The notes below the pieces were generated by a model. The model made no database searches, had not been told where the DNA came from, and saw only the letters and a program-made list of their open reading frames with translations. From an uncultured Phycisphaerales bacterium (lineage in GTDB: Bacteria > Planctomycetota > Phycisphaerae > Sedimentisphaerales > Anaerobacaceae): 64,000 nucleotides of DNA. How positions within the stretch are numbered: the stretch's first letter is position 1; the number at the start of each line of letters is the position of its first letter. The stretch covers positions 1,056,001-1,120,000 of the forward strand of contig OY970359.1 of the NCBI GenBank assembly GCA_963718665.1, read 5' to 3'. The position numbers and the translations under genes were made by a program. This document shows positions 4,005-50,722 of this stretch, piece after piece.

Positions 4005-4078
4005 TAATGCGTAGCTCAATTGGACAGAGCGTCCGATTGCTAATCGGAAGGTTGCGGGTTCGATTCCCGCCGCACAAG
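4005..4078 (+). tRNA. tRNA-like element or pseudo-tRNA, anticodon GCT, short variable loop, imperfect acceptor stem
   Basis: D arm GCTC-AATTGGACA-GAGC; anticodon arm TCCGA-TTGCTAA-TCGGA; variable loop AGGTT; T arm GCGGG-TTCGATT-CCCGC; acceptor TAATGCG/CGCACAA with 2 mismatches; no encoded CCA. Confidence 0.75.
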
Positions 4079-19623: not shown

Positions 19624-19747
19624 CCAAATCTCGCCAACTTCTTATATAACAAGCACTTATGGGTAATTTGGTTGTGCTTGTATCTTTGGTCCGGCACCTG
19701 CGGTTTTCACCGTCATCAAGATAGACAACGCTCCTTTTATTTTCCCA

Positions 19748-19853
19748 AGCACAGAATTCCGGCTGGACACGTATAAAAATATGAGACGAGTGGTGCTCGT
19801 CCGAGCTGTCGGCGCACATTTTCTTCAGCGTAGGCTGGCAGCTCTGTTTTTTT
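19748..19853 (+). ncRNA. Candidate small RNA, copy A (promoter-like motif + two hairpins + U tail)
   Basis: AGCACAGAATT-N9-CACGTATA, then GACGAG/CTCGTC and GAGCTGTCGGC/GCTGGCAGCTC + T run; homologous to copies B and C. Confidence 0.6.
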
Positions 19854-19909
19854 CAGGTTTCACCGCCTGGCTGTCACCTGCAAAAGCAAATCTACTTTTA
19901 GTTTTTTGA

Positions 19910-20007
19910 AGCGCGTAATTCCGTTAGGCCTCGTATATAACAATGAGGACGAGCAATGACTTGTCCGGGCTGATTGGCCATGCGTTTGAGCCAACAGCCC
20001 TTTTTTT
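19910..20007 (+). ncRNA. Candidate small RNA, copy B
   Basis: AGCGCGTAATT-N9-CTCGTATA, then GGACGAG/CTTGTCC and GGGCTG.TTGGC/GCCAACAGCCC + T7. Confidence 0.6.
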
Positions 20008-20107
20008 ATCTCCCCGGAAGCTTGCCCGCCGTTAGTGTGGCGGATTTTGTCGTTGTTAAAAAACAGGGGATGGGTAGAATTGAGGGATAAGTTAGGGCGA
20101 CCTGTTT

Positions 20108-20494
20108 ATGGTCAAACTCCAAATGAAAACAAAGTTGGGCGGACCGCCGGAAACATTTAGAGCAAGTCTCAGGGCTGCCACACGATATTGGGAGCCTCGC
20201 CGCATTATCTACAATCTTGTTCTTGCCGCTGTCGCAGTTACCTGGCTCGTATTGACATGGCCCCACTTCCACTCGGCATTGACTCTGCAATCGTTGCTGC
20301 TGCTTCTGGTTCTCGCAGCCATAGCTAATGTTTGTTATTCCGCTGCATACCTCGCAGACATCCTGTTGCAATTTTCACCTCTTCGCGACCTGTGGCAGCG
20401 TCAAAAGTGGTGTCTATGGCTTGCAGGCACAATTTTAGCGGTCGTGCTTGAGTGCTACTGGATTGCAGACGAAATTTATCCATATATCAGATGA
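20108..20494 (+). CDS. Hypothetical membrane protein
   Basis: YWE.RRI.YN.VL and ANVCY motifs, three hydrophobic segments. Confidence 0.75.
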   Translation: MVKLQMKTKLGGPPETFRASLRAATRYWEPRRIIYNLVLAAVAVTWLVLTWPHFHSALTLQSLLLLLVLAAIANVCYSAAYLADILLQFSPLRDLWQRQKWCLWLAGTILAVVLECYWIADEIYPYIR

Positions 20495-26013: not shown

Positions 26014-26523
26014 ATGAGATACTCAAAGCGATTGGAGCTCTTTGAAAAATTAAAGAATGAGTACATCGGCTATCTTACGACCACGCTTTGGAAACTCACC
26101 TGTGACACCGATATTTTTGATGAGGCGATTCAATACGCGCTTCTGGCTATCTGGATGAATCTCGAAAAGCTGACAGGCCCGCAGGCAGGGGCATATATCT
26201 ATCGAATAGCGTTGTCCGCCAACTCAAAGGCGTGGCGAAATCGCACCGGCAAAAATGGCCAGATAGCTAATGCGACCCTGACCGGCCGCCCTGCATACGA
26301 AGAAGTCGTTGATGCTGAAACGCTGAATCTGGTTAGAAAGGAAATCGCCAAGCTGCCCGAACAGCAGGCACAGGCAATTGTGATGCGGTATATCGAACAG
26401 ACCGATTACAAAGCAATCGCCGACAAATTGAACTGTGCCGAGGATACCGCCCGTTCGCATGTTTCAAAAGCGATTAATACATTGCGAAACAATCTCGCTG
26501 AAATGAATATATCGGAGTCCTGA
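26014..26523 (+). CDS. ECF RNA polymerase sigma factor
   Basis: Region 2 (AYIYRIA) and region 4 (LPEQQ..AIVMRY....Y..IA..L...E.T.RSHVSKA). Confidence 0.9.
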   Translation: MRYSKRLELFEKLKNEYIGYLTTTLWKLTCDTDIFDEAIQYALLAIWMNLEKLTGPQAGAYIYRIALSANSKAWRNRTGKNGQIANATLTGRPAYEEVVDAETLNLVRKEIAKLPEQQAQAIVMRYIEQTDYKAIADKLNCAEDTARSHVSKAINTLRNNLAEMNISES

Positions 26524-26524
26524 A

Positions 26525-26944
26525 ATGAATGAAGAAAAGCTAAAACAAGTCCTGAATAAAATCGGTCAGGCAGATGTCCCGCCGAACGTCGCTTTGATTG
26601 CCGAAAGGGCATCGCGGAATTTTGATTCTGCCCTCAAAATCGCCCAGCCGAAACAATGGTTTTTTACACCTGTCCGGCTAATCGCGGCTGCCGCGGTCGT
26701 TATTTTTGCGTTCGCCGCGGGCCGATGGTCACAACCGCCCCAGACACAACTATCATTGCTTAACCTCCCCGGCTATGCCTCGCCTATGCCGACACACCCG
26801 ACAAATCAGGAAAACGAAAACAGCTTCTGGCGACAAAAAGCCCTCGCCGCAATGCAGCCCAGACCTTATACACAAAACCAACTCTCCCAAACCGCATTAC
26901 TTAACGTCTATAAACAATACCTCAAGGAGAAATACAATGACTAA
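26525..26944 (+). CDS. Putative anti-sigma factor (single TM)
   Basis: Starts 1 nt after the ECF stop; one TM segment (LIAAAAVVIFAFAAG). Confidence 0.6.
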   Translation: MNEEKLKQVLNKIGQADVPPNVALIAERASRNFDSALKIAQPKQWFFTPVRLIAAAAVVIFAFAAGRWSQPPQTQLSLLNLPGYASPMPTHPTNQENENSFWRQKALAAMQPRPYTQNQLSQTALLNVYKQYLKEKYND

Positions 26945-43041: not shown

Positions 43042-43683
43042 TCAGCGCCTGGTGTCGCCGGCGCGGTCGTCGAAGGCGATGTCATCAATGAAGAAACTTC
43101 CGTCCGTCCCTTCCCCGGCCATAAAACCCATTTGCGGCTCGCACATTATCCTCGGGTTGAAGCCCTTCGCGGGTTTGAGGGCCGCCAGCGGAATCACCAC
43201 TTCGTGCCACTCGCCGTCGAGCATCTGGGGACAGTACCTGAGGACCTGCACTTTTGCGGTGTGTTCTTCGGGAGTGTCAAGAACCTCGCCGTTGCACAGC
43301 AGGTTGATTTGGAGTGGGCCGCCCTTGCCTTTGGTCTTTATCCGGAAGGTCAGGTTCTTCATGGCGCTGGCGTCCGTGCCGACGTTGCCTGTTTTGAAGG
43401 CGAGCCAGTTCCAGCCCGCGCCAAGCCATTCCTTGCTGCCTTTAAACTTGAACTCCAGCGCGGTATTACCGCTGTGGGCCTCAACGGTCTGCGGCTTAAT
43501 CGTCGCAGTGGTGGAATTTGTCCAGCCGGCACCCTTGCTCGCTTGTTCCCCATCCCACACCACAACCCGCTTCACAGCCGGCGCGGCTTCGACCTTACCC
43601 CGTGATATATTCGCAGAACCGGTTGACCGACAACCCGCACCAAGTATAGCTATCCCAAATCCGATAATCAAAAATCTCATCAT
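43042..43683 (-). CDS. Lipoprotein with a carbohydrate-binding (jelly-roll-like) domain
   Basis: Lipobox GAGC; AHSG..AL, W.G.GW, W.EVVIPL and FFIDDI.F motifs. Confidence 0.7.
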   Translation of the reverse strand: MMRFLIIGFGIAILGAGCRSTGSANISRGKVEAAPAVKRVVVWDGEQASKGAGWTNSTTATIKPQTVEAHSGNTALEFKFKGSKEWLGAGWNWLAFKTGNVGTDASAMKNLTFRIKTKGKGGPLQINLLCNGEVLDTPEEHTAKVQVLRYCPQMLDGEWHEVVIPLAALKPAKGFNPRIMCEPQMGFMAGEGTDGSFFIDDIAFDDRAGDTRR

Positions 43684-43777
43684 AAAAATCTCTAGGCGAA
43701 AAGATTTAGCTAAAACAACTATAAATCCTCACGTTCCAAACGTAAAACTTATTAAGGAACGTCCTCTTCGGCGGAAA

Positions 43778-43873
43778 TAAAAAGGGGCTGCCAGCCCACA
43801 CCCAAAGCCGACAGCCCGGACGAGTATCACCCGTCCTCCACTTATATATACGTGTACCCCTAAATTACGTGCT
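43778..43873 (-). ncRNA. Candidate small RNA, copy C
   Basis: AGCACGTAATT-N8-CACGTATA, then GGACGGG/CTCGTCC and GGGCTGTCGGC/GCTGGCAGCCC + T run. Confidence 0.6.
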
Positions 43874-44017
43874 AATGAAAATAAAAAGGCAGTTTTGCCT
43901 GTCTCGATGACAGTAAAGACCCCAGACGCAAGACCAAAGACAGGAGACCCCGCTTCGCTAAAGCTCCGCCGCACTGTGTGCTATGTAGGGCAGGAGCTAC
44001 GCAGGGCAGGCGAAATA

Positions 44018-50264: not shown

Positions 50265-50572
50265 GTAATCACAGGTTCAGCATAACAGATTCACCGCCGA
50301 GAACGCGGAGACCGCAGAGAAAAAATAAATTCAAATGAATCTCTGCGTGCTCAGCGGCCTTTGCGGTAAAAAATTTTGCTGGATAATCAAATGGGAACTC
50401 GGTTGAAAGCCGAGACCGACCCGCGGCTGTAAGCGTCTGTTCCGATGATGAATCGGAAGTCCTAAAGGCAGATATCCACTGTTTCGCGCTAATCTTAAGC
50501 AAAAAGAGAGATTGGTGCGGGGTGGGAAGGAGCTTTTAGGTAAGACGCGAGTCAGAAAACCTGCCTGTGGTG
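50265..50572 (+). promoter_or_regulatory. Cobalamin (B12) riboswitch aptamer
   Basis: CACAGGT...AATGGGAA-CTCGGTTGAAAGCCGAG-ACCGACCCGCGGCTGTAA...CCACTG...GGGAAGG...GAGTCAGAAAACCTGCCTGTG (B12 box closing P1). Confidence 0.92.
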
Positions 50573-50722
50573 AATTAAGTGGTTTACCCCGTGAGATAAA
50601 GCGTAGCGGAAAATATTTATATCGCTGATTAGTTATCTCACGGGGTTAATGGAGTTCTCGCGGAATGGAACTCGGCGCCGATGTGCTATAGCGCAGTTTT
50701 TGCGCTTTGTTTTTAGTTTATC

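Follow-up and report, generated by a model that had tools for sequence, protein, structure and literature searches.

A 64,000-nucleotide stretch of the genome of an uncultured Phycisphaerales bacterium (hereafter the window; the 2.61-Mb genome is called G000) carries three related intergenic units that are very probably real stand-alone small RNA genes. The preliminary description of this DNA had proposed multicopy sRNA genes that stand alone and terminate themselves, which inference from the sequence bears out. The units belong to an apparently undescribed sRNA family of one Sedimentisphaerales subclade. The common feature of this family is not the promoter but a word in the loop of the terminal hairpin. 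We consider the best mechanism, at a probability of about 45%, to be that of Hfq-free sibling sRNAs that pair through this terminator-hairpin loop.

Each unit consists of a promoter, two adjacent hairpins and a terminator, and all three lie where they had been reported. Copy A, on the forward strand, has a predicted ECF-type promoter that follows a T-rich tract, AAGCAC-N17-CGTATA (19747–19775; AAGCAC at 19747–19752, 17 nt, CGTATA at 19770–19775). The predicted sRNA of ~73 nt (19781–19853, 5' end estimated) comprises hairpin 1 (19785–19802), hairpin 2, which is the terminator (19803–19844), and a T-run to 19853. Its pyrimidine-rich loop core UUUUCUUCA (19819–19827) is a candidate seed; A-type loops are conserved with the consensus UYUUCUUCR, lying in an inner stem. 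Copy B, on the same strand, has the predicted ECF-type promoter AAGCGC-N17-CGTATA (19909–19937; AAGCGC at 19909–19914, 17 nt, CGTATA at 19932–19937) and a predicted sRNA of ~65 nt (19943–20007, 5' end estimated) for which B-type homologues exist. Hairpin 1 (19947–19966) is followed by the terminator hairpin (19967–20000), with the loop CAUGCGUUUGA at 19979–19989, and by the T-run (20001–20007). A REP-like palindrome with dispersed look-alikes in the genome forms a hairpin 3' of copy B, outside the RNA (20018–20043, forward strand). Copy C lies on the reverse strand: its predicted ECF-type promoter TAGCAC-N16-CGTATA (43847–43874; TAGCAC at 43874–43869, 16 nt, CGTATA at 43852–43847) precedes a predicted sRNA of ~63 nt (43779–43841, 5' end estimated) with hairpin 1 (43836–43818), a terminator hairpin 2 (43817–43785) and a T-run (43783–43779). 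The loop of this terminator-like site carries the family-defining word GGGUGUGG (43796–43803), common to four further G000 hairpins. Five independent patterns, each aimed at the promoter, hairpin 1 or hairpin 2, found exactly three sites apiece in G000, those of A, B and C.

Each of the three copies folds into a pair of adjoining hairpins followed by a U-run; the z-scores against shuffled sequences are −3.05 (A), −6.24 (B) and −4.77 (C). Among 26 aligned scaffold homologues, 99.1% of cells pair, with changes on both sides in 3 of 17 pairs. The covariation check gave a divided answer in this alignment, whose rows are close kin: the covariation score lies above 500 of 500 shuffles, whereas the pair-count measure is reached by 71 of 500 and is not beyond chance. 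The preliminary description held that stems are kept while loops vary. The stems are indeed kept, but every subtype has a conserved loop of its own, and nothing in the wider family is better conserved than the C loop. It was also right that no reading frame is conserved. Frameshifting indels between homologues disrupt the ATG and GTG frames, and a small ORF reading was rejected for that reason.

The scaffold is present in 19 of the 24 genomes of the genus, G000 included, at one to three copies per genome. A hairpin pattern matched 13 of 23 other genus genomes, none of 37 genomes outside the genus and no controls; a second pattern added five more genus genomes. An identical promoter motif stands 5' of every scaffold copy, that of copy A being kept in all homologues. 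A metagenome scan returned 71 matches, 44 of them with hairpin 2 and a T-run (30 distinct), and the −35 word, which had been left out of the search pattern, is xxGCAC in 26 of these 30 distinct copies. Viral contigs gave 31 and 5 pattern matches; all are without the second hairpin or T-run and are chance matches. The scaffold loops fall into class C (UUUGGGUGUGG), class B (CAUGCGUUUGA and shortened forms), class A (UYUUCUUCR) and two UGUUCG types, so that a single scaffold hosts several separately conserved loops. The three copies first described are real, but the family exceeds them.

No known RNA family had been recognised, and Rfam 15 agrees: across the window and 18 member loci the best E-values at the elements are 0.8–6.7, below the gathering threshold. 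Resemblances to ANTAR hairpins, the 23S P-loop, RNase P, T-box and Y RNA found no Rfam support and were dropped. Elsewhere in the window Rfam identifies a cobalamin riboswitch (50330–50582) and a tRNA (4005–4078). The SRP RNA is located elsewhere in G000, and a candidate 6S RNA (contig C1, 684027–684212) falls just under the Rfam cut-off (37.6 against 46.4 bits). The literature searched, which leaves most subscription papers outside, holds no study describing the sRNA family. The alignments of PMC2864571 and the candidate lists of PMC10690425 could bear on its novelty; PMC2864571 lists 'Rhodopirellula-1' with no Rfam id. Logan contigs from RNA runs of relatives (X1–X5) held 7–8% of the words. 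These contigs do not show discrete transcripts and may be DNA, because they span promoters.

The promoter had been taken for an ECF type, and its geometry argues for this. The xxGCAC-N16/17-CGTA of the units, copy A included, has the layout of G[AC]AC-N16/17-CGTA, which precedes csrA in 22 of 29 loci, and judging by this likeness an ECF sigma factor is likely to read it. Intergenic GCAC-N16/17-CGTA occurs at 14 sites in G000, A and C among them, versus 4 at other spacers; the figures for GAAC-N16/17-CGTA are 27 sites versus 17 at spacers 15, 18 and 19 combined. The cognate sigma was not picked out from the 18 sigma region-2 matches in G000. Readings of the promoter as sigma54 or sigma28 were rejected as a poor fit, by eye, to the consensus sequences of those sigma factors. 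Separately, the window encodes an ECF sigma factor at 26014–26944, 6 kb from A and B, next to a small gene for an anti-sigma factor that is probably membrane-bound. The csrA promoter itself (TGAAC-N16/17-CGTA; G000 C1 2120190–2120256 and L333–L361) is conserved family-wide. Other ECF-type sites in G000 precede look-alikes, named by eye, of thioredoxin, MsrB, peroxiredoxin, Fur and Rrf2, which suggests a redox ECF regulon.

A regulon defined by the upstream motif did not emerge: in a position-weight-matrix scan of G000 the full promoter motif scores at copies A, B and C only. Nor is the family as a whole co-regulated, as had been suggested, because its other members have promoters of the sigma70, extended −10 or response-regulator kind. 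What they share instead is the terminal loop, which the preliminary description had overlooked. The copy C loop GGGUGUGG recurs at the tips of terminator hairpins on at least three further G000 scaffolds with differing promoter types. Hairpin D (contig C1, near 182027–182042, reverse strand) has the sigma70 promoter TTGACG-17-TATTAT; hairpins E (near 543852–543871) and F (near 1692168–1692189), both on the forward strand, have an extended −10 box; and hairpin G (near 1600300–1600301, reverse strand) is long and lies behind genes that Pfam identifies as a PAS kinase and a NarL/LuxR regulator. In G000 all five TWGGGTGTGGG sites are in terminator hairpins, versus 2 of 44 control words. From about 66 unseen TWGGGTGTGGG words in sister genomes we fetched 40 in list order, and 33 pass the terminator test, although one of these is probably spurious and the test overlooked one genuine case. 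Of 41 loop words in other genera, 11 pass, again one of them probably spuriously. Altogether there are 89 distinct hairpin contexts, of which 76 read GGGUGUGGG, 6 GGGUGUGGA and 3 GGGUGCGGG. The loop is GGGUGYGGR in 85 of the 89, counting all fetched loci, on wholly different stems. One word of 8–9 nt is reached on stems that are unrelated and via four or more promoter classes, and it appears to be under selection.

The range of the family is narrow: one subclade of one family, apparently represented by uncultured genomes only. A covariance model recovered copies in other genera that have the terminal hairpin with the C loop only, behind sigma70 promoters. Weak family-level matches of covariance model R1 were rejected as mostly generic terminators. 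Members occur in eight other genera of one Sedimentisphaerales family (g2, g11, g12, g53, g62, g67, g79 and g88). In a GTDB-wide scan, stem plus T-run was found only in records titled as Planctomycetota lineages (Sedimentisphaerales, Phycisphaerales/Phycisphaerae, Pirellulales or Planctomycetota), and the loop-hairpin model gave 26 other matches in 150 class genomes, none with the core word. Many ordinary terminators in this bacterial family (L069–L092, L097, L098, L101, L102) share GGGCUG(U/C)GRG...CAGCCC stems and often lie 3' of secreted repeat protein genes.

We infer that A, B and C are paralogous, likely independently transcribed RNAs of about 65–75 nt, which a predicted ECF sigma factor would switch on. 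Hairpin 1 is likely a 5' stability element, because its sequence is replaced, or in some copies lost, in other family members. The terminal loop would be the business end, base-pairing in trans. In copy C the word GGGUGUGG is held by weak U·G pairs that would open upon pairing, and four more G000 genes would offer this word on different stems, controlled by sigma70, an extended −10 promoter or a two-component system. With one loop word under several promoter controls, a variety of signals would converge on a single regulatory output. Copies A and B would be duplicates with re-specified loops, that of A being complementary to purine-rich ribosome-binding and start-codon regions.

We favour pairing because one scaffold bears several conserved loops, because the A loop is pyrimidine-rich and its word recurs in the sigma54-array units of G000, and because the positional counterpart in family f2 has a long C-rich loop. 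This counterpart came to light among 20 regulator orthologues fetched without regard to the presence of the RNA: 2 have a G-rich RNA, 4 (all f2) have, 3' of the response regulator, a hairpin whose C-rich loop is long and unpaired, and 14 have neither within 400 nt. The four f2 loci (L297, L303, L304 and L305) hold a candidate sRNA with a loop of the CCCCACAAUCCCC type and the same upstream boxes. The C-rich f2 loop was not found as a hairpin family in the genus searched.

Sibling RNAs of this kind are familiar. LhrC1-7 of Listeria, Rsa/RNAIII of Staphylococcus and cuckoo/CcsR pair via hairpin loops, terminator loops included; the terminator loops of LhrC and RNAIII serve as seeds, and the loops of all these RNAs are C-rich anti-Shine-Dalgarno words. 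By contrast, the dominant loop here is G-rich, and only copy A has a pyrimidine-rich one. Two features of sibling sRNAs, multiple copies, each with its own promoter and intrinsic terminator, and a conserved accessible seed, are found in the sequence. No Hfq was detected in G000, and multicopy sRNAs that pair without Hfq exist. FopS of Bacteroides thetaiotaomicron, as PMC11697453 describes it, consists of dispersed multicopy sRNAs from a lineage that lacks Hfq and has an RRM protein; these RNAs are short, end in an intrinsic terminator and have a common seed. In FopS, however, a single-stranded 5' stretch contains the seed and the copies are paralogous in sequence, whereas here a G-rich word sits in the terminator loop on unrelated stems behind different promoter classes.

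The target tests run for the loop word were all negative or weak. Words of the CCACACCC type are not enriched close to start codons. Their depletion in coding DNA (7 against 22 expected) proved an artefact that disappears under a Markov control. G000 coding DNA is strongly depleted of words with AGCCT/AGGCT and AGACT/AGTCT, which suggests that a restriction site of the AGNCT type is avoided. The leader of an ECF gene contains a perfect 11-nt site, but it is kept in just 1 of 11 orthologues, and prepilin leaders match in 1 of 18; both were rejected as targets. Stable RNAs offer no good site for the loop and the sigma54 array no good duplex, and an RNAduplex scan was uninformative, its output being dominated by stems. 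A conserved multi-branch hairpin lies between an upstream operon and the sigma54-type clpB promoter (G000 C1 2128856–2128945; L309, L502–L518). Of 17 loci, 11 keep its CCACACCC-like, complementary word, though partly within an internal stem, and 6 in genomes of the genus lack it. For the A loop, codon choice at MKK starts shows no selection for a match (17 of 47, against about 33% genome-wide). The spoVG terminator was rejected because it has a different loop and is itself not kept in G034; the spoVG 3' region (G000 C1 1219790–1219920; L310, L328–L331) consists of three hairpins followed by a terminator whose loop is G-rich, an arrangement that recurs in all 4 other genomes of the genus that were compared. 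It also counts against pairing that mRNAs offer a G-rich seed no generic target like the Shine-Dalgarno sequence.

The rival that survives best, which we hold possible but rather unlikely, is that the RNAs are decoys titrating one RNA-binding protein that recognises the GGGUG(U/C)GG loop in the Csr/Rsm manner; A and B would then be drifted or re-purposed copies. In favour of this, an identical word stands in an identical structural position on unrelated stems and behind several promoter classes. The protein could be CsrA, for which the case is circumstantial, with SpoVG or a single RRM protein as alternatives. CsrA is encoded in 144 of 150 family genomes. G000, which is 94.6% complete, has two csrA genes, and neither FliW, nor Hfq, nor an evident CsrB-like multi-GGA RNA was found in it. 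The csrA promoter shares its geometry with the units, and in G134 and G136 csrA lies about 1.4 kb from the regulator orthologue. The widest-spread subtype, G, stands directly 3' of a PAS histidine kinase and NarL/LuxR regulator pair in 19 of 22 loci, with a downstream gene that differs between genera, and 14 of 27 regulator-linked loci have an upstream palindrome resembling ATCAG-N7-CTGAT. The loop of one copy contains GGAUGU, and mobile-element-like DNA carries copies too (L084).

Other observations speak against a decoy. GGA occurs in 1 of 89 loops and is elsewhere paired in the stems; each RNA has a single site; and mRNA leaders show no enrichment of the loop motif. At what we take to be the contact residues, the CsrA sequences look canonical. 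The regulator scores 167 bits where the cut-off of the UvrY/GacA model is 280 bits, and it adjoins the G subtype only. Moreover, the RNAs are found in just 9 genera although CsrA is family-wide. SpoVG binding is reported (PMC11086051) not to depend strongly on sequence.

A more elaborate form of the decoy reading, and an improbable one, is a Gac/Rsm-like circuit that evolved independently in Planctomycetota. CsrA or another global RNA-binding protein would be titrated by sRNAs with a non-canonical GGGUG loop, driven respectively by a two-component system, an ECF sigma and sigma70, and mobile elements would bring copies of their own to hijack the circuit. If true, RNA antagonists of CsrA would be seen for the first time outside the gamma-Proteobacteria, with a new recognition code. 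The likeness to BarA-UvrY and GacS-GacA, as set out in PMC4682653, lies in several sRNAs with different promoters, one of them here following a two-component pair of the NarL family and a palindromic box, and in a host (G000) with CsrA and no FliW found. The differences are the missing GGA loops, the single site per RNA and a regulator below the UvrY/GacA cut-off, and in that source FliW rather than sRNAs is proposed for Planctomycetes. Rli31 of Listeria, which is linked to SpoVG, is likewise a two-hairpin sRNA with a functional apical loop, and the host here encodes SpoVG; but the Rli31 loop (PMC4959528) is C-rich, in the 5' hairpin and single-copy, and our analyses gave no link of the loop-word RNAs to SpoVG.

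The partner of the loop would reveal either a new kind of target for a G-rich seed or the way in which planctomycetes with CsrA but no FliW control a global RNA-binding protein. A G-rich terminator-loop word across unrelated scaffolds is unusual, as are swappable loops on one scaffold, and the family offers concrete, short, testable molecules in a lineage where CsrA is near-universal and, in G000, no Hfq was detected. The literature searched held no study of RNA regulation in Phycisphaerae.

A further reading makes the RNAs antitoxins or counter-transcripts derived from mobile elements and acting on an overlapping or nearby transcript. Close relatives do carry copies at different loci. Some copies lie in mobile-element-like DNA, such as L084 between an AlpA-like and a primase-like gene (Pfam), and L084, L095 and L068 are antisense within phage- or ICE-like operons. 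Yet the loop is invariant across unrelated loci, and the loops of cis-antisense RNAs usually diverge. The chromosomal subtypes D and G sit next to stable host neighbours, no partner ORF is common to the loci among the ORFs of at least 60 aa examined, and viral contigs lack true matches. We judge this reading quite improbable.

Less probable again is a non-functional mobile repeat, MITE or REP-like, with the hairpins as by-products, a reading that is largely refuted already. The units are set among REP-like palindromes, and filled and empty sites both exist between fliA and the tmRNA gene: the A/B pair follows a FliA/WhiG-type sigma gene in three relatives, directly before tmRNA in two, and the site is empty in G000. 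The MITE reading fails because these filled and empty sites show REP-like clutter, with neither terminal inverted repeats nor a target-site duplication. Copy number is merely one to three per genome, the bipartite promoter with its spacing is conserved, and unrelated stems retain the loop.

The weakest reading, the cis-acting attenuator or riboswitch of the downstream gene that the preliminary description gave as its alternative, fails because neighbours vary widely and the window genes have sigma70-like promoters of their own. Downstream genes in G000 are both on the strand of the unit, but elsewhere they bear no relation to one another and frequently run antisense. By crude ORF calls, 36 loci have a downstream ORF, which in 20 of them occupies the opposite strand, and the largest downstream family numbers 4. 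Predicted sigma70-like promoters serve the 128-aa gene at 20108 (TTGTTA-16-TAGAAT, 20053–20080, forward strand, a consensus match only) and the 213-aa gene at 43683 (TTTACG-17-TATAGT, 43718–43746, reverse strand, also a consensus match), and relatives have TTGAC variants at the latter place. The minimum-energy and centroid structures contain no alternative antiterminator fold, and no leader ORF is conserved, frameshifting indels being present. At all 10 loci of the sigma70-driven D subtype, the neighbour on either side is antisense. Genes for HNH-AP2 endonucleases converge on the D-subtype RNA at L213 (checked with Pfam), L226, L244 and L247.
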